This document shows, one piece after another, positions 26,223 to 35,725 of a stretch of 56,191 nucleotides of DNA. The stretch is from Pelagibacteraceae bacterium. Lineage in GTDB: Bacteria; Pseudomonadota; Alphaproteobacteria; HIMB59; GCA-002718135. The position numbers and the translations under genes are program-made. The stretch covers positions 1 to 56,191 of the forward strand of contig JAGFWP010000028.1 in assembly GCA_017639935.1 (NCBI GenBank), read 5' to 3'. Numbering within the stretch: the first letter of the stretch is position 1; every line of letters begins with the position of its first letter. The notes beneath the pieces were generated by a model. It did no database searches. It saw only the letters and a program-made list of their open reading frames with translations, and was not told the DNA's origin.

Positions 26223-26957
26223 ATGAAAAAGTCCAAAACACGTATTTTTGTAAGTAAATCTATATCACCAAACTTGATGGTTTATATTAAAGATAAACAG
26301 CATCATTTTTTAAAGAACGTTCTAAGAGTAAAAATTAATGACCAGATAAATATTTTTGATGGAATTTCGGGAGAGTGGGAGACAAATGTAATCTCAATAA
26401 ACAGAGACAATACTGTCTTACGTGTAACAAAAAATATCAGCAAAATTAAAGAATCTAGTGACGTGTGGTTAGTATTTTCTCCTATTAAACAACATCGTAT
26501 GAGTCTAGCTGTTCAAAAGGCAACAGAATTAGGAGTATCAAAAATTATTCCATGTATTACTGAATATACAAACGTTAGGACAATAAATACAAAAAATTTA
26601 TATTTTAATGCCATTGAGGCAGCAGAACAATCAGAACGACTAGATATTCCAAAAATAGAAAAACAAATTGATCTTAAATCTTTATTGTTAAAATGGCCTG
26701 AAGATAGAAAATTAGTTTATTGTGATGAAAAAATTAATAATGGCAAATCCATAATAGAAACCCTTGTCCCTTTAAGGGATTCTAGTACTAAATGGGGAGT
26801 TCTTATTGGTCCAGAGGGAGGGTTCTCTGACTTAGAAAATGAATTAATAACAAAGACCAAGAATGTAGTAGCAGTATCGTTTGGAGATAGGGTGCTTCGT
26901 TCCGACACAGCAATAACCGTCTCCCTGTATTGCATTCAGGAATTATTGTTTAACTAA
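26223..26957 (+). CDS. rsmE: 16S rRNA m3U1498 methyltransferase
   Basis: HFLKNVLR, QKATELGV, EAAEQS, IGPEGGF, RVLRSDTA. Confidence 0.95.
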   Translation: MKKSKTRIFVSKSISPNLMVYIKDKQHHFLKNVLRVKINDQINIFDGISGEWETNVISINRDNTVLRVTKNISKIKESSDVWLVFSPIKQHRMSLAVQKATELGVSKIIPCITEYTNVRTINTKNLYFNAIEAAEQSERLDIPKIEKQIDLKSLLLKWPEDRKLVYCDEKINNGKSIIETLVPLRDSSTKWGVLIGPEGGFSDLENELITKTKNVVAVSFGDRVLRSDTAITVSLYCIQELLFN

Positions 26958-27005
26958 TATTTGTTTCATAAATATATGAATTGATTTATAAGCAACTATA
27001 ATCTT

Positions 27006-27644
27006 ATGACTGCTACTTATTCATACTTGCTTTTTATCTTATTAGGAATTTTCTTGTTTTGTTATTTGGTGGCAACAAGATCTTGGATTAAAGCAGATGA
27101 AAAGAATAAGCAGCTATCTCCTGAAAAAGACAAGCATAGTAGAAGAGATTTCCTATATCTTTCGTCAATTTCAATTGGCAGCGTGGGGACAGCTGCATTT
27201 ATATGGCCCTTTCTAAAAAGTATGAATCCTGCTGAAGACACATTAGCTCTTGGTTCAACCGAGGTGGATCTTTCTGATATTTCAGTTGGACAAAGCAAAA
27301 CTGTTAAATGGCGAGGCAAACCAATATTTATCAGACGACGAACCCAAGAAGAAATATCTGAAGCTAATAGCGTTGATGTCGCTGTTCTGCGCGATCCCGT
27401 GAATGACAAAGACAGAATTCAAAAAGAGGAATGGCTGGTTTTAGAGGGTATTTGCACACACTTGGGATGCGTGCCTCTAGGACAAAAAATGACAGATACA
27501 AAAGGGGAATATAACGGCTGGTTCTGTCCATGCCATGGATCGCATTATGATACTTCAGGAAGAATTCGAAAAGGACCTGCTCCAGACAACTTAGCCGTAC
27601 CACCTTATCAATTTATAAGTGATACGATTATTAAAATTGGATAA
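27006..27644 (+). CDS. petA: Ubiquinol-cytochrome c reductase Rieske iron-sulfur subunit (no adjacent petBC)
   Basis: RRDFL Tat motif, SMNP, KWRGKP, CTHLGC, CPCHGSHYD, GPAP. Confidence 0.93.
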   Translation: MTATYSYLLFILLGIFLFCYLVATRSWIKADEKNKQLSPEKDKHSRRDFLYLSSISIGSVGTAAFIWPFLKSMNPAEDTLALGSTEVDLSDISVGQSKTVKWRGKPIFIRRRTQEEISEANSVDVAVLRDPVNDKDRIQKEEWLVLEGICTHLGCVPLGQKMTDTKGEYNGWFCPCHGSHYDTSGRIRKGPAPDNLAVPPYQFISDTIIKIG

Positions 27645-27652
27645 AATTAATT

Positions 27653-27847
27653 TTAATCTTTATCTAAAAATTTTCGCAAAAATTTATTGGCAAAAAAAAG
27701 CACGGTAAAAGAGGAGATAATAACAATTACCGCGATACTGGCTCCTGACAACCCGTTTGTATAACATACAGCGCAACGAGCAGACGCTGATAATGGCGTT
27801 AAAATGATAAGCAAAATAGTATATGAAAAAATAAATTTTTTTATCAT
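27653..27847 (-). CDS. Small membrane protein with CxxC motif
   Basis: 64 aa; signal peptide ending ASA, RCAVC, one TM helix, basic tail; ATGA overlap with the ctaB stop. Confidence 0.7.
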   Translation of the reverse strand: MIKKFIFSYTILLIILTPLSASARCAVCYTNGLSGASIAVIVIISSFTVLFFANKFLRKFLDKD

Positions 27848-28752
27848 TGTATTATATTATCCACTATTATTATTGAAAAAATTAAGAAAAGATAAAGGAT
27901 TGAATAAACAAATATTTTTTTCGCAAATTTTTTTTCATTATCAGTATCAGTTAATAATTTATAGCATAAATAGACATAGTAACTTCCTAGGAAAAAACTG
28001 GATAAGAGATATATTAAACCAAAATAACCAAAAAAAGCAGGAGAGAGAGAGACAATAAATAATATGACCGCATAAACAAAAATGTTTGTTTTGGTGGTCT
28101 TTATGCCTGCAACAACAGGCAGCATTGGAATTTTTGCATTATTATAGTCTTCTGTTTTATACAAGCTTAAGGCCCAGAAATGAGATGGCGTCCAAAAAAA
28201 AATAATGAGGAAAAGTAATATGGGTTCTAAAGTTATATTTCCAGTTACAATCGTCCAACCTATAACAGGAGGTAAGGCACCTGCAACCCCCCCAATGACG
28301 ATGTTTTGTGAAGTTTTTGGTTTCAGCCATATTGTATAAATAATTGTGTAAAAGAAAATAGTAAAAAATAACATAGTCGCAGATAAAAGATTTGAGAAAA
28401 AATAAAGAGTAATAACTGATACAAAAGAAGTTACTATACCAAATATTAGTGCTTGATTTTTTGTAACCTTGCCCGTTGGTATGGGTCTGAGACACGTTCT
28501 TTTCATTAACGCATCAAGGTCTGCCTCATACCACATGTTTAATGCTCCAGCAGCCCCTGCGCCCAGAGCAACGGCCATTATGGACAGGGATGCATCAAAA
28601 AAACCTACTTGTGTTGGAGCTATGATTAATCCGACTACACAAGTAAAAATAACCAAAGACATCACGCGCGGCTTCATAAGCTGGTAGAAGCTACGTGAGT
28701 ATGTGAAAAAATTGGTATTTATTAATGCTGTTTGTGGCAACAATGCCTCCAA
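27844..28752 (-). CDS. ctaB: Protoheme IX farnesyltransferase (heme O synthase)
   Basis: KPRVMSL, D..MKRTCLRP, QNIVIGGVAGALPP, WTPSHFWAL; start may be TTG 28740 after a GGAGG. Confidence 0.95.
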   Translation of the reverse strand: MEALLPQTALINTNFFTYSRSFYQLMKPRVMSLVIFTCVVGLIIAPTQVGFFDASLSIMAVALGAGAAGALNMWYEADLDALMKRTCLRPIPTGKVTKNQALIFGIVTSFVSVITLYFFSNLLSATMLFFTIFFYTIIYTIWLKPKTSQNIVIGGVAGALPPVIGWTIVTGNITLEPILLFLIIFFWTPSHFWALSLYKTEDYNNAKIPMLPVVAGIKTTKTNIFVYAVILFIVSLSPAFFGYFGLIYLLSSFFLGSYYVYLCYKLLTDTDNEKKFAKKIFVYSILYLFLIFSIIIVDNIIQ

Positions 28753-28756
28753 AAAT

Positions 28757-29086
28757 TTATGAACCAGCTATCATGAAATATATTTTTCTTACTAATAACG
28801 TCCAATATGATTCATGCCACATTATAAATAACAATAGCAAGATGGCACTGCAAGGAAAGAGAATAGCGTAGAGCAATGCCAATCGCTCCCAGTATAAATG
28901 CATAAATATTGCACATATCAAGCCAGCTTTTAAAAGCATGAATATAATAATCAAACCCCACCGCGAGAAGCCTTCAAACTGGAACCAATCCACTAGATAG
29001 GAAAATGTGCTAAGAACAAAAAGCAGTAACCAGATTGTAAGATAAATAGATATAGGATGTTGTTGCGATTGCGTATTTTGTGTCAT
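28757..29086 (-). CDS. Cytochrome c oxidase subunit IV (CoxQ-like)
   Basis: Three TM helices, KAGLI..FMHL; position after two subunit III genes. Confidence 0.85.
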   Translation of the reverse strand: MTQNTQSQQHPISIYLTIWLLLFVLSTFSYLVDWFQFEGFSRWGLIIIFMLLKAGLICAIFMHLYWERLALLYAILFPCSAILLLLFIMWHESYWTLLVRKIYFMIAGS

Positions 29087-29095
29087 TATATTACC

Positions 29096-29815
29096 TCACC
29101 ATAAATAGAAAAAAGCAAAAATGAAAACCCACACTAGATCAACAAAGTGCCAGTAAAGACCCATTATTTCTATTGCTTCATAATGTGATTTTTGCGATGT
29201 GAAAAAACCTCTTCTACCCGTATCAAAATCACCTCTAAACGACTTTCTTGACATTATTAGTAGAAAAATCACTCCAATTGTAACATGAGTTCCATGAAAA
29301 CCAGTTATCATAAAAAAACTTGCGCCAAATTGCGGAGCACCCCATGGATTGCCCCAAGGACGAACCCCCTCCATAATAAGTTTTGTCCATTCAAAAGCTT
29401 GCATGCCAACAAATGAAGCACCAAAGAGAGCTGTTAATATCAAAAATATAGAACACATTTTACGATTGCGTTGATAACCGTACTTTACGGCAAGAGCCAT
29501 TGTCCCACTGCTTGTAATGAGGATGAAAGTCATAATTGCAATTAAAAGAAGAGGAACAGAAACATGACCGACATGCAATGAAAATACTTTGCTAGGATTA
29601 GGCCACGCAAGCTTAGTAGAAAAACGAACAGTCATATATGAAATTAAAAATATGCTAAAAATGAAAGTATCAGCAACAAGGAAGATCCACATCATTGCTT
29701 TTCCCCACGGCACGCCTTTAAAAGTTTTTTGATCCGATGACCAATCAGATACAACGCCTTTTCGACCCTTGATGTATGGAGGGACTGTTATTGTTGCTGT
29801 TGTTGATTCTTCCAT
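29096..29815 (-). CDS. coxP: Heme-copper oxidase subunit III, CoxP type
   Basis: WGKAMMWIFL, TGFHGTHV, GLYWHFVDLVW. Confidence 0.85.
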   Translation of the reverse strand: MEESTTATITVPPYIKGRKGVVSDWSSDQKTFKGVPWGKAMMWIFLVADTFIFSIFLISYMTVRFSTKLAWPNPSKVFSLHVGHVSVPLLLIAIMTFILITSSGTMALAVKYGYQRNRKMCSIFLILTALFGASFVGMQAFEWTKLIMEGVRPWGNPWGAPQFGASFFMITGFHGTHVTIGVIFLLIMSRKSFRGDFDTGRRGFFTSQKSHYEAIEIMGLYWHFVDLVWVFIFAFFYLW

Positions 29816-29827
29816 AAACTATTCTCC

Positions 29828-30472
29828 TTAAGAAAATGACATTAATCCAAACAAGACTAACCAGACAAAAAGTAAAAAATGCCAGTAAATGCCACACAAT
29901 TCCACTGTATGCTGAGCATTTTTAACAATAATTTCATTGAAGGACCAGACTTTTCTAATTGTCATGCCCCAGTAAATCAATCCTCCTATAAGATGCAGTC
30001 CATGCAGTGCTGTGAAAAGATAAAAATAGGCATTAGCAGGATTGCCTGCCACATAGTATCCCAGTCCGATTAGTTTCTGCCATACTAGCAACTGACCTAA
30101 AATAAAAATAAAAGCTAATCCACCAATCATCAAAAGACCTCTTTTAACTTTTTCAAACTGTTTTTTATTGGATGCAACCTGAACACTTATAAAAATTATA
30201 CTGCTTGCAAGCAGTACAAATGTATTGAACCATAGCAACAGGGGTTCAGGCATATTTTGCCAATCCGCGTAAATCATTCTATCTGAGTAGGTAACAATGA
30301 ATAGACAAAAAAATATTGTGCTTACAATTATAATATATCGCTGCCCCAGTTTTCCAGTACTAAGATCTATAGTTTGCCCACTGTGCAAGTTATCAAGTTC
30401 AGCTTGAGCAGGATCCCAAGGTTTCTGTGTAAGTAGCTGAAGAATGCTTTCTTCTTTATTTCTATTGCTCAT
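29828..30472 (-). CDS. coxO: Heme-copper oxidase subunit III, CoxO type
   Basis: NPANAYFY, TALHGLH, YWHFL..W. Confidence 0.82.
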   Translation of the reverse strand: MSNRNKEESILQLLTQKPWDPAQAELDNLHSGQTIDLSTGKLGQRYIIIVSTIFFCLFIVTYSDRMIYADWQNMPEPLLLWFNTFVLLASSIIFISVQVASNKKQFEKVKRGLLMIGGLAFIFILGQLLVWQKLIGLGYYVAGNPANAYFYLFTALHGLHLIGGLIYWGMTIRKVWSFNEIIVKNAQHTVELCGIYWHFLLFVWLVLFGLMSFS

Positions 30473-32262
30473 GTTTTTTCAGCCTGTGCGTTGGAAACTT
30501 CACTTGGTGAAATATTTTGAGGAATGTAATCTTCATTTGCGCCAGGAACGCTGAAGTCATAAGCCCATCTATGGACAATTGGTAATTCTTTCTCAAAATT
30601 GCCGTGACCAGGGGGCATTTCGGTTGTTTGCCATTCTAACGAACATGCTTTCCATGGGTTTTTTTCAGCTTTGTCTCCATGTTTAACACTAACTATAAGA
30701 TTATAAAAAAATACAAGTTGGGCAAAACCTGTGACAAGAGCAGCTATTGTAATAAATTGATTGATTCCAACTATAGAGACTGGAAAAGCTTCACCTTCGA
30801 ATACCTCAAAATATCTTCGAGTAACTCCCATGAAACCTAAATAGTGCATAGGGAAATAGATTGAGTATGAACCTAAAAAGGTTATCCAAAAGTGTATTTT
30901 ACCCAAGCGATTGTTTAAAAAACGCCCTGTTATAAGAGGAAACCAGTGGTAGATTGCTCCGTATACCACCAGAACTGGGGCAATGCCCATCACCATGTGA
31001 AAATGAGCAACGACAAAATAAGTATCCGATAAAGGAACATCGACAATCACATTTCCCAAAAACAATCCTGTGAGTCCGCCGTTTGTGAAAGTGATAAGAA
31101 AACCTATGGCGAATAACATTGGAACAGTTAACTGAATATTTCCTCTCCAAAGAGTGAGGACCCAATTATATACTTTAAGGGCTGTGGGAATAGCGATGAT
31201 TAGAGTAGTTGTGGCAAAGAAAAAGCCAAACCACGGATTCATTCCAGCTACATACATGTGATGTGCCCAAACTATAAAGCTAAGAAAGCCGATGATCACA
31301 ATAGCCCACACCATCATTCGATAACCAAAAATGTTTTTTCTTGCATGAACGGAGATGAGATCTGACACTATGCCAAAAGCAGGAAGGGCCACAATATAAA
31401 CTTCAGGGTGTCCAAAGAACCAAAAAAGGTGCTGAAATAAAATCGGACTACCTCCATCATATGCCATTTGTTCACCAAGACCTGCTTCTAAGATAGCAGG
31501 CATAAAAAAACTTGTTCCAAGTATGTTATCTAATAACATCATAATGCCCGCAACAAGAAGGGCTGGAAAAGCAAATAAAGCTAAAACGGTTGCTACAAAA
31601 ATACCCCAGACTGTAAGAGGCAAGCGCATTAAAGTCATACCACGCGTACGAGCTTGCAGTGTAGTAATGACATAATTCAATCCGCCCATTGTAAATCCTA
31701 CAACAAAAACAGCTAAGGAAACTATCATTAAGATTATACCTAGACCGCTACCAGGCGTACCAGACGTTATGGCTTGCGGAGGATACAGCGTCCAGCCTGC
31801 GCCCGTCGGCCCACCAGGGACGAAATAACTTGCCACCAATATCAGCACAGCTAAGAGAAAAACCCAATAGCTTAACATGTTAACATAAGGAAAAACCATA
31901 TCCCTTGCGCCAACCATGAGAGGAATGAGATAATTTCCAAATCCTCCTAAAAAGAGAGCAGTTAAAAGATATATAACCATTATCATGCCATGCATGGTAA
32001 CTAATTGGTAATAAGCAGAAGCATCCATAGGAATAACTCCAGGATATGCAATTTGCATTCTAATTAACCAAGAAGAAACTAAGCCAACCAAACCGATTGC
32101 AATCGCTGTTAACGAATACTGTACAGCTATTACTTTTGCATCTTGACAAAAAATATACCGAGTCCAAAAACTTTTTGCATGGTATAGTTCTTGAGGCTGA
32201 ACTTCTAATGCAGGTACCGCATCATCACCCTTAACAACATCTTCATAACCATTAGCTGCCAT
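30469..32262 (-). CDS. coxN: Cytochrome c oxidase subunit I, family A1, CoxN type
   Basis: TMHG, GWTLYPP, GHPEVY, WAHH, AHFH, TRRY. Confidence 0.9.
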   Translation of the reverse strand: MAANGYEDVVKGDDAVPALEVQPQELYHAKSFWTRYIFCQDAKVIAVQYSLTAIAIGLVGLVSSWLIRMQIAYPGVIPMDASAYYQLVTMHGMIMVIYLLTALFLGGFGNYLIPLMVGARDMVFPYVNMLSYWVFLLAVLILVASYFVPGGPTGAGWTLYPPQAITSGTPGSGLGIILMIVSLAVFVVGFTMGGLNYVITTLQARTRGMTLMRLPLTVWGIFVATVLALFAFPALLVAGIMMLLDNILGTSFFMPAILEAGLGEQMAYDGGSPILFQHLFWFFGHPEVYIVALPAFGIVSDLISVHARKNIFGYRMMVWAIVIIGFLSFIVWAHHMYVAGMNPWFGFFFATTTLIIAIPTALKVYNWVLTLWRGNIQLTVPMLFAIGFLITFTNGGLTGLFLGNVIVDVPLSDTYFVVAHFHMVMGIAPVLVVYGAIYHWFPLITGRFLNNRLGKIHFWITFLGSYSIYFPMHYLGFMGVTRRYFEVFEGEAFPVSIVGINQFITIAALVTGFAQLVFFYNLIVSVKHGDKAEKNPWKACSLEWQTTEMPPGHGNFEKELPIVHRWAYDFSVPGANEDYIPQNISPSEVSNAQAEKT

Positions 32263-32277
32263 TAAATTACTCCTTTA

Positions 32278-33114
32278 TTAATCATTTTTTGAAGCTACTT
32301 TTATTAAATCATTATTTTTATTGAGTGCTAAAGTTTCTTTAAAAGTCATTTGTTCATTTAACCATTCATCATAATCATCTTTTTCATCAACTAGAACTGT
32401 GCCAAGCATAGCATAGTGTGCCGTACCACAATATTCAGCGCATAAAATCTCAAAACTACCTGTTTTTATCGGGGTAAACCAATAAGAAGTAATCATTCCA
32501 GGAATCATATCCATTTTTGCTCGGAATTGAGGCACATAAAAATCATGCAACACATCAAGGGAGCGAAGATTTACTTTCAAAGGTTGATTTAATAATATGT
32601 GAAGTTCATCACCGTCAATCAAGATGTCATCAAAACTATGAGGGTCGTCAGTGTTTAAACCGAACATATTCTCATCATTAATATTATTAATATCTGTCGT
32701 GCCTAAAATTCCATCTTGACCAGGCAATCTAAATCCCCATCCCCACTGGTATCCTAAAACTTCAATTTCATATACATCATCTGGAACTGTTACAAATTTG
32801 TTCCACACTATCAAACCTGGAGTAAGCAGAGCTATAACGCCCAAAGCTGTCAATATTGTAAGGATCCATTCTAATCTAGCATTTTCTGGTTCATAATCAG
32901 CTGTTCTGTCTTTATTATATCTATATTTCCACACGCAAAAAGCCACAAACAGGCCTACGGCAACAAACACGACTCCTGTGACCCAGAATGTTAGAAGAAT
33001 TGTACTGTCAATATTGCCCCAGTTAGAAGCTACTTCTGACCACCACCAGGGGGACCAGAAATGAAAAGCCACCGATCCAAGAATTACCAATAGAATGACT
33101 ATAGGGACTATCAT
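32278..33114 (-). CDS. coxM: Cytochrome c oxidase subunit II (CuA), CoxM type
   Basis: ASNWG, DVLHDF, CAEYCGTAHYAM CuA site; start placed at ATG 33114 (GGA upstream) rather than the ORF-track start. Confidence 0.88.
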   Translation of the reverse strand: MIVPIVILLVILGSVAFHFWSPWWWSEVASNWGNIDSTILLTFWVTGVVFVAVGLFVAFCVWKYRYNKDRTADYEPENARLEWILTILTALGVIALLTPGLIVWNKFVTVPDDVYEIEVLGYQWGWGFRLPGQDGILGTTDINNINDENMFGLNTDDPHSFDDILIDGDELHILLNQPLKVNLRSLDVLHDFYVPQFRAKMDMIPGMITSYWFTPIKTGSFEILCAEYCGTAHYAMLGTVLVDEKDDYDEWLNEQMTFKETLALNKNNDLIKVASKND

Positions 33115-33139
33115 TGATCTGTATCCATTAATAGATCTA

Positions 33140-33153
33140 TTGATTTGAATCAA
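33140..33153. promoter_or_regulatory. Perfect FNR/FixK-type box
   Basis: TTGAT-TTGA-ATCAA in the divergent coxM/pseudoazurin intergenic region. Confidence 0.65.
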
Positions 33154-33171
33154 TTTATTTTTTGTAAGGAA

Positions 33172-33185
33172 ATGATATAAATCAA
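33172..33185. promoter_or_regulatory. Second FNR-type box (one mismatch)
   Basis: ATGAT-ATAA-ATCAA, 32 bp from the perfect box. Confidence 0.5.
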
Positions 33186-33327
33186 ATCATTTGTTAACTA
33201 TTTCAAATACTTATCAAGTGCGACCTTTTGTCCTTCTTAATTTTTTTTTATTTTTTTGATTTTATGTTTTTTTTTTAATTTACATAGTAAGGACTCATAT
33301 TTAATTAATTTCTAAGGAGTGATTACA

Positions 33328-33762
33328 ATGAGATATTTCGTCGTATTTTTATTTGGTTTATTTTTTTCAAATTTTGCAGTTGCTGAAGACGTGACTATTG
33401 AAATGCTGAACAAGTTAGACAAACGAAATATGGTTTTTAGTTTAGAGATAGTAAAAATTAATTCAGGTGATACTGTTTTTTGGAAAGCTACGGACAAGGG
33501 CCACAATGTTGAATTTATTTCTAAGGGCGGCGTACCTGACGGAGTGGAAAAATTTAAATCTAAAGTTGGAAAAGATATAGAATTTAATTTTACCATACCT
33601 GGCATTTATGCATACTGGTGCACCCCACACAAAACTATGGGCATGATCGGCTTTGTAATTGTTGATGATGATTTATCTAATTTAGATTCGATAAAAAAAG
33701 TTAAATTTTTAGGCAAATCAAAAAAAATTGCTGCCGCACTGATTGCTGAGTTAGAAGGATAA
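33328..33762 (+). CDS. Pseudoazurin (type 1 blue copper protein)
   Basis: Signal peptide ending AVA, IEMLN..MVF, GHNVE, CTPH..MGM ligands; AAGGAG at 33314-33319. Confidence 0.9.
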   Translation: MRYFVVFLFGLFFSNFAVAEDVTIEMLNKLDKRNMVFSLEIVKINSGDTVFWKATDKGHNVEFISKGGVPDGVEKFKSKVGKDIEFNFTIPGIYAYWCTPHKTMGMIGFVIVDDDLSNLDSIKKVKFLGKSKKIAAALIAELEG

Positions 33763-33780
33763 TAGTTTGTTTATTTGTGC

Positions 33781-34323
33781 ATGAGATATAAGAAAAATAA
33801 ATTCATTATATTTTATGTATTTAACATTATTTTATTATTTGTAATCCTGCTTCTAGCAATACCTGCTTCTAAATTCTTAAATAGAATTAATTTGGATGAT
33901 AACGAATTTGTAACAGGTCAAGTAGTTATCAATCCAAAAGCTGAATCGCCAAAAGTTATCGATCGGACAATGAAGATAAAATTTGTGGCTGAAGTAGACA
34001 GCTTATTAGAATGGGATTTTAAGGCGTTGCAAGACACCATTGAAATTAATGTTGGAGAGAACAGAGTTATTAGCTATGAAGGAAAGAATTTATCTGACAG
34101 GGTAATTACATCAACAGCGAACTTTATTGCTTCGCCTGAATCGATCATACCTTATTTAGTGAAAACAGAGTGTTTTTGTTTCACTGAACAGACACTTGCG
34201 CCAGGGGAGAGCAAAATATTTACATTGGTATTTTACCTTGATCCCTCCTTGGATTCTGACAATAATCTTAATGATTTAAAAGATCTGGTATTCACATACG
34301 AATTTTCAGAATATAAAAGTTAA
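33781..34323 (+). CDS. ctaG: Cytochrome c oxidase assembly copper chaperone CtaG/Cox11 (divergent)
   Basis: N-terminal TM, KTECFCFTEQTL, FYLDP. Confidence 0.82.
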   Translation: MRYKKNKFIIFYVFNIILLFVILLLAIPASKFLNRINLDDNEFVTGQVVINPKAESPKVIDRTMKIKFVAEVDSLLEWDFKALQDTIEINVGENRVISYEGKNLSDRVITSTANFIASPESIIPYLVKTECFCFTEQTLAPGESKIFTLVFYLDPSLDSDNNLNDLKDLVFTYEFSEYKS

Positions 34324-34357
34324 TCTTTAATTATATTAATTTCTACAAGAGGTTATT

Positions 34358-35725
34358 GTGCATTATTTAAGTACGCGTAACAACGAATTAAAAGAATCAT
34401 TTTTAAACGTTCTTTTTCAAGGCTTGTCCAAAGAAGGTGGCTTGTTTTTACCTTCCGCGTGGCCATCAATTTCTATTGAAAACTTGAGAGGAAAAAATTA
34501 TCAAGAAATTGCCCACGCTGTCATCAGTCCATTTGTTCAAGAAGATATCTCTGATGAAGATTTAGTCTTAATAGTAAATAAAACGTATCAAAGTTTCAAT
34601 CCTAAGAGCATAGCCCCATTAGTTAACATTGAAAAAAATAAATATATCTTAGAACTTTTTTACGGACCAACGCTTGCCTTTAAAGATTATGCATTACAAT
34701 TTTTAGGAAATTTATTTTCACATGTGTTGGAAAACTCAAATAGAAAAATCACAGTACTGGGCGCCACCTCCGGAGATACAGGTTCAGCGGCCATAAATGC
34801 CTTTAAAGGTAAAAACGACATACAAGTTTTTATTTTACATCCACATCAAATGGTGTCAGAAGTTCAGCGTCGTCAAATGACAACAGTCGGAGAAAAGAAC
34901 GTTCATAATATAGCCCTCAAAGGAACTTTTGATGATTGTCAAAAAATTGTTAAAAAACTCTTTCTTGATGATGAATTACAATCAAAGACATCTCTAACAG
35001 CTGTTAATTCAATCAATTGGGCCAGACTAATTGCACAAGCAGTTTATTATTTTTGGGCCTATATTCAGTCAAATCAAGAAAAAGTTAATTTCATTGTTCC
35101 TTCAGGCAATTTTGGAAATGTTTTTTCTGCCAGAATAGCGAAGTTTATGGGTTTGCCAATCGATCATCTACATATTGCTACAAATGAGAATGATATTTTA
35201 CATCGTACAATTAGCGAAGGCAGGATGAGAATAAACAATGTGAAAAAAACACATAGTCCAAGTATGGATATCCAAGTTTCTAGTAATTTTGAGCGCCAAT
35301 TATTTGAGAGTGCAAAAAGAGATAGTGATATGGTGCAAAAAATAATGCAATCATTTGCCGAGACCGGGGAGCAAGTTCTATCAGATCAAATAGTTCAAGA
35401 CATGCAATTAATTTATACCACCCATTCGGTATCCAATTCTCAAACATTAGAAACTATTAAATATTACAATGAACATTATGATTATTTAGCTGATCCCCAT
35501 ACGGCAACAGGGTTATATGTTCTTGAACGAATGAGCAATGAACAACCAGCAATAAGCCTGGCATGTGCCGATCCAGGCAAGTTTGGCAATGCAATAAAAG
35601 AGGCAACCGGGAACCTCCCACATTTTCGACCAGAGTTAGAAAATATCTTTGATCAAGATGAAAAGATGACTATATTAGATAATGACACAGACTTAATCAA
35701 ATCACACATACTAGAATTAATTTAA
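34358..35725 (+). CDS. thrC: Threonine synthase
   Basis: YLSTR, GPTLAFKD (PLP lysine), ATSGDTG, NSINWAR, PSGNFGN. Confidence 0.96.
   Translation: MHYLSTRNNELKESFLNVLFQGLSKEGGLFLPSAWPSISIENLRGKNYQEIAHAVISPFVQEDISDEDLVLIVNKTYQSFNPKSIAPLVNIEKNKYILELFYGPTLAFKDYALQFLGNLFSHVLENSNRKITVLGATSGDTGSAAINAFKGKNDIQVFILHPHQMVSEVQRRQMTTVGEKNVHNIALKGTFDDCQKIVKKLFLDDELQSKTSLTAVNSINWARLIAQAVYYFWAYIQSNQEKVNFIVPSGNFGNVFSARIAKFMGLPIDHLHIATNENDILHRTISEGRMRINNVKKTHSPSMDIQVSSNFERQLFESAKRDSDMVQKIMQSFAETGEQVLSDQIVQDMQLIYTTHSVSNSQTLETIKYYNEHYDYLADPHTATGLYVLERMSNEQPAISLACADPGKFGNAIKEATGNLPHFRPELENIFDQDEKMTILDNDTDLIKSHILELI

Follow-up and report, generated by a model that had tools for sequence, protein, structure and literature searches.

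A candidate pseudoazurin-linked CoxMNOP-type oxidase module in a marine alphaproteobacterium of the HIMB59 lineage

The stretch of DNA analyzed here (the window, 56,191 nucleotides) is contig JAGFWP010000028.1 of the assembly GCA_017639935.1, assigned to a Pelagibacteraceae bacterium of the HIMB59 lineage in the Alphaproteobacteria. The source genome, called G000 below (the window is its contig C21), comprises 1.33 Mb in 70 contigs with a GC content of about 31%, and it is 91.5% complete and 0.06% contaminated. Between positions 27,006 and 34,323, the window holds a respiratory gene cluster in which a petA gene, an oxidase operon, and a divergent pseudoazurin-ctaG pair lie side by side (Table 1). 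Downstream of ctaG are thrC and then an M16 peptidase gene. We describe this cluster and weigh whether its pseudoazurin may carry electrons to the oxidase. Gene identities were taken from Pfam and NCBIfam profile matches for the open reading frames (ORFs) of the window. They confirmed, with their positions, all the genes listed in an earlier reading of the sequence alone, which we call the original prediction.

Table 1. Genes and candidate sites of the respiratory cluster, in order along the window
Feature	Position	Strand	Evidence or remark
petA, bc1 Rieske iron-sulfur subunit	27006..27644	+	TIGR01416, 219.5 bits (cut-off 97.4)
Membrane mini-protein of 64 amino acids (aa) with CAVC, last gene of the oxidase operon	27653..27847	-	no Pfam/NCBIfam family
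ctaB, heme O synthase, the module's own copy	27844..28752	-	TIGR01473, 325 bits
Oxidase subunit IV, COX4_pro	28757..29086	-	PF03626, E 1.1e-9
Subunit III-like protein, 239 aa	29096..29815	-	PF00510, E 5e-17; best matches CyoC/QoxC models
Second, divergent subunit III-like protein, 214 aa	29828..30472	-	PF00510, E 5e-7
Subunit I (CoxN-like), A1 type	30469..32262	-	PF00115, E 6e-135; GHPEVY
Subunit II (CoxM-like), CuA, without heme c	32278..33153	-	PF00116
Conserved motif GTGCGACCTTTTGTC, candidate regulatory site	33218..33232	+	some 100 nt ahead of the pseudoazurin start
Pseudoazurin, type 1 copper protein with a signal-like N-terminal stretch	33319..33762	+	PF00127, E 7e-19
ctaG/Cox11, CuB insertion factor, directly downstream of pseudoazurin	33775..34323	+	PF04442, E 1e-32

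The pseudoazurin is the only cupredoxin found in G000. Its score on the pseudoazurin model TIGR02375 (104.5 bits) is slightly below the cut-off of 109.85. Pseudoazurins of the Protein Data Bank (PDB) match it over residues 23-146, which is the whole mature protein including the C-terminal helices, with E values from 9e-29 to 1e-21. The copper ligands H62, C101, H104, and M109 are invariant among 31 sequences. Alignments of homologues make ATG 33328 the more likely start codon, and the sequence AAGGAG stands ahead of it at 33313-33318.

The oxidase subunits carry the residues expected of their class. In the alignment of subunit I with 6ADQ_F, the MHG, GHPEVY, AHHMY, AHFHMV, HH, and HFH motifs are visible, and the channel motifs RDMVFP (D-channel Asp) and PTALK (K-channel Lys) align as well. 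By the residue numbering of such enzymes, we take these to supply the heme and CuB ligands, the D-channel Glu, the cross-linked Tyr, and the channel Asp and Lys. Subunit II aligns over its full length with subunit II of Rhodobacter sphaeroides. It contains the CuA motif CAEYCGTAHYAM and no CxxCH, and its residues H202, C237, E239, C241, H245, and M248, together with the entry tryptophan W136, are invariant among 23 sequences. The region around the entry tryptophan reads 'QQWxWSYRxPGxDG' and has an insertion of about 11 residues, in contrast to the canonical 'HQWYWEYEYPD'; this form is common to the whole oxidase type. The more likely start of coxM in the homologue alignments is ATG 33114. The 239-aa subunit III-like protein matches TIGR02897 and TIGR02842, both below cut-off. 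Heme A supply is complete, with ctaB at the locus and COX15-CtaA on contig C12 (E 1e-99). By these sequence criteria, the enzyme is classed as an A1-type heme-copper oxidase. A search of the genome gave a single COX1 match and a single COX2-domain match, both at the locus; no other terminal heme-copper oxidase was found in G000.

The operon belongs to a distinct type. In a class-level sample of 400 genomes, the identities to subunit I are bimodal, being 67-80% in 24 genomes and at most 45% in the rest. We fetched 20 homologous oxidase loci from this sample, and all 20 have the gene order II-I-III-like-III-like-IV, with the 214-aa gene in the identical position. The canonical copies form a long branch in the subunit I tree. 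A plasmid collection gave 202 records matching subunit I, the top matches being 72-74% identical and located on replicons of Bradyrhizobium, Sinorhizobium, Rhizobium, Neorhizobium, and Phyllobacterium. All five rhizobial replicon loci that we examined have the same five-gene layout. The name coxMNOP is reportedly from work on Bradyrhizobium by Bott and colleagues in 1992. On gene order and identity, we assign the operon to the CoxMNOP type, the comparison having been made with the rhizobial replicon copies. This is the name that the literature gives to such operons, in the available parts of two papers (PMC5492768; PMC4274787). The layout in the 20 class loci and the five rhizobial loci, with the rhizobial identity, bears out the original prediction in this respect. 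The role of an 'alternative' (additional) oxidase, which it had given for CoxMNOP, is not what we found, as the enzyme is the sole COX1 and COX2 in G000 and the sole COX1 in each of the eight genomes of the order that have this type. Irregular copies also occur: cox2 of one locus (L158) has an internal stop, and the cox1 match of one genome (G130) has two.

Comparison within the order shows where the operon sits. We compared 41 genomes (G000 and 40 relatives), and each of the 34 genomes having any COX1 match has exactly one. The canonical form (about 535 aa, about 550 bits) is present in 26 genomes. The form of the window (about 600 aa, about 450 bits) is present in eight, namely G000, G001, G002, G005, G006, G008, G012, and G021, which we call window-type genomes. 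In three canonical-type genomes (G007, G017, and G025), msbA (-), ubiA (-), and rsmE (+) on one side and thrC (+) and the M16 gene (+) on the other enclose a ctaC-ctaD-ctaB-ctaG-ctaE cluster. That cluster also holds one or two further ORFs, the first of which has the size of surf1 and is so named from its position. Identical flanks enclose the CoxMNOP-type module in G000 and the other window-type genomes. The ctaB of the module is 44-49% identical to the ctaB of relatives with the canonical operon, and its ctaG only 31-34% identical to theirs; because of these low identities, both genes likely arrived with the module. In two genomes of other families, G057 (locus L155) and G403 (L160), a CoxMNOP-type operon lies beside or inside a canonical ctaCD...ctaB/ctaG/ctaE cluster near thrC and the M16 gene, which looks like an intermediate of the replacement. 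Judged from synteny and identity, the module has displaced the canonical cta operon at the same chromosomal site in some members of this streamlined marine family. The replacement of a mitochondrial-type cta operon is a clean case of whole-module displacement in a minimal genome.

The pseudoazurin gene is a regular part of this module. In all eight window-type genomes it points away from coxM and precedes ctaG, with 71-80% identity in the seven besides G000, and its adjacency to the cox genes spans five genera at 66-84% protein identity. A ninth genome (G010) also has the gene, its contig beginning 95 nt ahead of it. Only two of the 26 canonical-type genomes (G017 and G020) have a pseudoazurin, 51-56% identical and remote from the cox genes. 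We also inspected public loci, taken as the 80 best from a pseudoazurin profile search. The window family accounts for 17 of them, and cox genes adjoin pseudoazurin in 15 of the 17; in the other two, the contig ends 95 and 320 nt upstream of pseudoazurin. Among the 15 is an irregular single-cell contig (L053), in which cox1 comes after pseudoazurin in the same orientation and cox2 is missing, possibly through an assembly artefact. In another family, G172 carries a 70-74% identical pseudoazurin by a homologous operon in a rearranged form, with ctaB (+) and pazS (+) converging on cox4 (-). One clade of the subunit I tree (support 94/97) unites the window family (100/100), three genomes of family f55 (G393, G093, and G265), and G172; all 10 genomes of this clade have pseudoazurin and no other oxidase match. 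The pseudoazurin tree has 15 of its 28 forks open, and its low resolution leaves undecided whether the cox-linked copies form a clade. Recurrence of the neighbourhood in related genomes was a check proposed by the original prediction, and it held up in the order, in the public loci, and in the rearranged locus of G172.

The spacer between the likely starts of coxM and pseudoazurin is 213 nt long and contains conserved blocks. One of them, GTGCGACCTTTTGTC (GTGCGACyTTTnGTC), has a single occurrence in the 1.33-Mb genome and recurs at the corresponding spacer position in at least 10 loci of relatives; it was not found in the spacers of G001 or G005. A T-rich block and a GAATCAAA block closer to coxM are conserved with it. 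We rejected another candidate, the FNR/FixK-like box TTGATTTGAATCAA (33140-33153), a perfect palindrome that precedes the likely coxM start by 27-40 nt: it is conserved in none of five relatives' spacers, and the genome has 20 such boxes. A scan of positions 26900-34400 gave 23 promoter-like sites against 28.2 expected and three terminator-like sites against 5.3 expected. Parts of the window stretch are held by 18 RNA runs from eight studies, stored as contigs. The RNA-library contigs match the locus at 95-100% identity (four studies) and bridge pseudoazurin and ctaG in three runs from three studies, which tells of presence and bridging and not of level, strand, transcript ends, or transcription units. 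The AT-rich spacer (33105-33326) had no RNA contig in four runs; part of it was skipped as a repeat, and we do not interpret this gap.

The petA product is a normal Rieske protein. It has the CTHLGC and CPCHGS motifs and an N-terminal PF10399 match (E 1.7e-13). The original prediction had called it an orphan and had pointed to missing petB and petC genes. The second point stands for the G000 assembly, which has no match for cytochrome b or c1, and petBC is not adjacent to petA; it does not extend to the relatives, as cytochrome b is found in all 40. The description as an orphan is not sustained. G006 has a canonical petA-petB-petC operon after a trmH-like gene, and its PetA and that of the window share 74.6% identity. 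G001 has petB-petC without petA about 1.7 kb from the trmH-like gene, and a full-length petA at the cox locus. Such a petA at the cox locus is present in three genera. In G000, 455 nt separate the trmH-like gene from the left edge of contig C69, and a divergent ORF runs off there. Because this syntenic region runs off the contig, the petBC site appears to be unassembled, and the petBC genes of G000 are most likely in an assembly gap. By its sequence and these gene arrangements, petA is an ordinary bc1 subunit gene that was relocated to the cox locus. The ORF at the end of C69 was also tried as the upstream gene of G001; it gave no BLAST match, and a likeness of about 25 residues seen by eye was not used as evidence.

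The relocated PetA has an additional feature. In G000, G001, and G002, its residues 1 to about 45 (27006-27140 in the window) are a one-helix segment fused in frame. In G006, G012, and G021, a separate 46-aa one-helix ORF occupies the same place, between rsmE and the mini-protein gene (for example, L028:4241-4378 in G006, and likewise in L029 and L037). The 46-aa ORF has no Pfam match at E values up to 5. The predicted fusion product is a Rieske protein whose RR motif is preceded by one additional N-terminal helix. An independent petA start is unlikely in G001 because there is no ATG, GTG, or TTG codon between the helix and the RR motif, and an internal start is possible in the G000 and G002 fusions. 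The fusion of the Rieske protein to a small membrane ORF is a directly testable hint of coupling between bc1 and the oxidase.

We looked for cytochrome c genes and for other possible partners of pseudoazurin. None of the 398 ORFs of at least 30 aa across the window has a CxxCH motif, so the statement of the original prediction that the region has no CxxCH protein is true within the window. It fails for the genome as a whole: contig C69 encodes a cytochrome c of 182 aa, with CGACH and a membrane anchor at its N-terminus, which we take to be CycM-like, and CcmE is encoded outside the window. G000 also encodes a 405-aa multi-helix membrane protein (L003:514-1731, contig C16) with a C-terminal CAVCH and a weak PF00034 match (E 0.02), presumably resembling the urate hydroxylase PuuD. 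Profile searches of the 91.5% complete G000 gave no PF07732 match (NirK or multicopper oxidase), no PF03150 match (CCP or MauG), and no PF13442 match (Cytochrome_CBB3 family), and cbb3 genes were not found. There is no further PF00116 match either, and NosZ is accordingly taken to be absent because no second CuA domain was found. The absence of nirK and nosZ, noted by the original prediction for the cluster, is thus borne out by the search of the whole assembly. A link of pseudoazurin with nirK, which that prediction had named as adverse to its proposal, is not seen in G000; it is seen in some of the public loci discussed below.

The distribution of a soluble 135-aa cytochrome c bears on the same point. 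Of the 26 canonical-type genomes, 21 have this protein, as against none of the eight window-type genomes. One of the latter, G021, lacks it although nine of 14 genomes of its genus have one. Two loci show its surroundings in relatives. In G011 (L173:3728-5710), the genes after that for the soluble cytochrome c are MsrP-like (a molybdopterin oxidoreductase) and MsrQ-like (a membrane protein of the ferric-reductase type). In G025 (L174:3956-5248), it is grouped with genes for a CsoR-like metal-sensing repressor and a cupredoxin-like protein, and this cluster could allow the cell to choose between heme and copper carriers in response to copper. The original prediction had pseudoazurin acting in place of soluble cytochrome c; the correlation of 21/26 with 0/8 suggests such a substitution and does not establish it.

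We favour, with confidence a little above even, the reading that pseudoazurin carries electrons from the bc1 complex to CuA of CoxM, alongside CycM, in a transplanted module. Pseudoazurin would be exported to the periplasm and reduced there by cytochrome c1 of the bc1 complex, and it would pass single electrons to CuA of CoxM. The membrane-anchored CycM-like cytochrome c would offer a parallel path, and pseudoazurin may fill the role of the soluble cytochrome c of canonical-type relatives. The calculated charges allow this docking. The net charge is -18 for the periplasmic domain of CoxM and -12 to -16 for canonical CtaC domains, and the acidic CoxM domain is compatible with a Lys-ringed donor. 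The soluble domain of CycM has a net charge of +3.

Several observations weigh against this reading. The mature pseudoazurin has a net charge of 0 (pI 7.0) and is not clearly basic, so the charges do not argue strongly for docking. G000 and each of the five other window-type genomes checked have a CycM-like cytochrome c, which could serve the oxidase alone. The MsrPQ-like and CsoR-like neighbours of the soluble cytochrome c make its respiratory role uncertain, and possibly it never carried electrons in respiration. Genes that are transcribed divergently are a weaker sign of a common function than genes transcribed together. The genomes behind the co-occurrence counts are related, and the counts represent few independent events. 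Outside the window family, no pseudoazurin lies near the homologous operon in 19 of 20 loci from other families, and in the class sample, six of the 24 genomes with the oxidase type have pseudoazurin, compared with 31 of the 376 others. The oxidase type therefore needs no pseudoazurin. The class tallies include two genomes flagged as unpublished (G278 and G079), both with the canonical oxidase and no pseudoazurin; nothing else in this account depends on them. The other 63 public loci, nearly all titled Pelagibacteraceae (SAR11-type), have pseudoazurins that are 62-76% identical; cox genes lie beside them in none of the 63 within the fetched flanks. In nine of the 63, a nirK-like gene adjoins pseudoazurin, and ccoNOP follows in six complete genomes. 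Pseudoazurin thus lacks specificity for the CoxMNOP-type oxidase.

The last of these observations feed the strongest rival explanation, in which pseudoazurin is a general periplasmic carrier, or serves an unrecognised partner, and its position beside the cox genes is a hitch-hiking accident. Apart from the nine with nirK, the SAR11-type orthologues lie mostly among transporter and housekeeping genes. In the f55 genomes, pseudoazurin is found beside AhpCF, aminotransferase, or TonB-receptor genes, and no respiratory genes were found among its neighbours in G393, G093, G265, G253, and G324. However, the adjacency to the cox genes has been held across five genera whose proteins have diverged to 66-84% identity, and it recurs in a rearranged form in G172. 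Moreover, no other acceptor gene for pseudoazurin was found in G000, where the CuA oxidase is the sole suitable periplasm-facing oxidant detected. We therefore regard the hitch-hiking explanation as unlikely, while giving it more room than the remaining two.

A second rival assigns pseudoazurin to copper handling or to the assembly of the oxidase copper centres with CtaG, and not to turnover. Its position among assembly genes fits this, as it stands before ctaG in G000 and after ctaB in G172. Profiles for PCuAC and Sco1/SenC gave a match in none of the 41 genomes of the order, with either oxidase type, so some other copper route must exist. However, relatives with the canonical oxidase also lack Sco1, PCuAC, and pseudoazurin, and the chaperone gap is for this reason not specific to the module. 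All four type 1 ligands are invariant, and the protein matches electron-transfer pseudoazurins from end to end. Type 1 sites bind copper tightly and are, to our knowledge, not copper donors. The 64-aa mini-protein at the other end of the operon is the better chaperone candidate. It has a signal-like N-terminal stretch, the CAVC motif, and a C-terminal hydrophobic helix, and it adjoins ctaB in relatives' loci at 51-69% identity. It was found beside none of the 20 homologous operons of other families, and it gave no Pfam match at E values up to 5 and only hypothetical-protein clusters in the ESM Atlas. From its sequence, we consider this CxxC protein a candidate copper-handling factor. An assembly role for pseudoazurin is, on balance, quite improbable.

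The strict form of the original prediction, a shuttle free of cytochrome c in which electrons pass from an orphan Rieske protein, with no cytochromes b and c1, through pseudoazurin to CuA, fits the unmatched cytochromes b and c1 of the assembly, the CxxCH-free window, and the petA genes at the cox locus in three genera, but it is scarcely credible given the cytochrome b of all 40 relatives, the petBC that G001 keeps elsewhere despite its relocated petA, the G000 petBC site lying off the end of contig C69, the encoded CycM-like cytochrome c and CcmE, and the normal bc1-type sequence of PetA.

The preferred reading, of electron transfer by pseudoazurin to CoxM, can be extended. The main aerobic route of these cells may run from bc1 through pseudoazurin to the CoxMNOP-type oxidase in a physically coupled assembly. 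The oxidase swap, the copper carrier, and the relocation and fusion of petA would then have arrived or followed together, with the fusion tethering the Rieske protein to the oxidase and a copper protein replacing the soluble heme carrier in an iron-sparing manner. We offer this wider proposal with clear reservation and think it doubtful in its full form. If the proposed transfer itself is true, a pseudoazurin would serve an aa3-type oxidase in what is the only respiratory branch of a widespread lineage of marine oligotrophs, which would bear on the trade between iron and copper in such cells. The locus also gives the CoxMNOP-type oxidase a physiological setting, as the rhizobial papers, in their available parts, present it only as an alternative oxidase.

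The known system nearest in gene content is the rhizobial CoxMNOP, an alternative aa3 oxidase described in R. etli (PMC4274787, available part). It has the same operon layout and a CuA subunit II without heme c, and its subunit I is 72-74% identical to that of the window, compared with at most 45% for the canonical CtaD. In contrast to the rhizobial enzyme, the G000 oxidase is the only one found in its genome and lies at the canonical cta site, and the module has gained its own ctaB, ctaG, CxxC mini-protein, and pseudoazurin. The CoxM of Pseudomonas KF707 has two fused c hemes (PMC5492768, available part), and the CoxM of G000 has none. A 'cytochrome c family protein' gene is directly upstream of subunit II, on the same strand, in two of the five rhizobial replicons (S. 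meliloti pSymB and Rhizobium sp. Pop5), and the Bradyrhizobium, Neorhizobium, and Phyllobacterium loci have no such gene. In the 20 class loci, an ORF with CxxCH lies within 2.5 kb of the homologous operon in one. The pSymB and Pop5 loci are therefore a precedent for a carrier gene at this position, though not a rule. Their carrier is a heme protein encoded on the same strand, whereas the carrier in G000 would be a copper protein encoded on the opposite strand.

Cupredoxins serve heme-copper oxidases elsewhere: plastocyanin, halocyanin, sulfocyanin, and rusticyanin are donors in cyanobacteria, haloarchaea, Sulfolobus, and Acidithiobacillus. The use of a cupredoxin for cytochrome c in phototrophs is often read as iron saving. 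The G000 system likewise pairs a cupredoxin with a terminal oxidase, but the cupredoxin family and the lineages differ. Pseudoazurin itself is a carrier of denitrification in Paracoccus and others, and we know of no description of it as a donor to an aa3-type oxidase. A literature search, which covered few subscription journals and no supplements, gave no description of pseudoazurin with an aa3 oxidase or a COX operon. A term search of a paper on AEGEAN-169 (PMC10308909) gave no mention of oxidase, cytochrome, copper, or pseudoazurin. In SAR11, a nirK-pseudoazurin-cbb3 island has been described (PMC12816887, available part), and it matches the SAR11-type loci in our set. One of them, L055, confirmed the nBUS arrangement of nirK, a small ORF, pseudoazurin, and RNR beta, with ccoNOP farther along. 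The protein family is the same as in G000 (62-76% identity). Unlike the island, G000 has no nirK, nosZ, or cbb3 found, and its pseudoazurin neighbours an A1-type oxidase.

For the Rieske protein, the parallel is with Actinobacteria, where QcrA is a Rieske protein with extra N-terminal helices in the bcc-aa3 supercomplex. As in QcrA, the predicted PetA of G000 has an added transmembrane helix before its Tat-type RR motif, and its gene lies among oxidase genes. In contrast to QcrA, it would have a single extra helix, derived from a separate 46-aa ORF. The CtaD of M. smegmatis is also the top PDB match of subunit I, at 404 bits, a score only a little higher than the 373-378 bits of proteobacterial enzymes.

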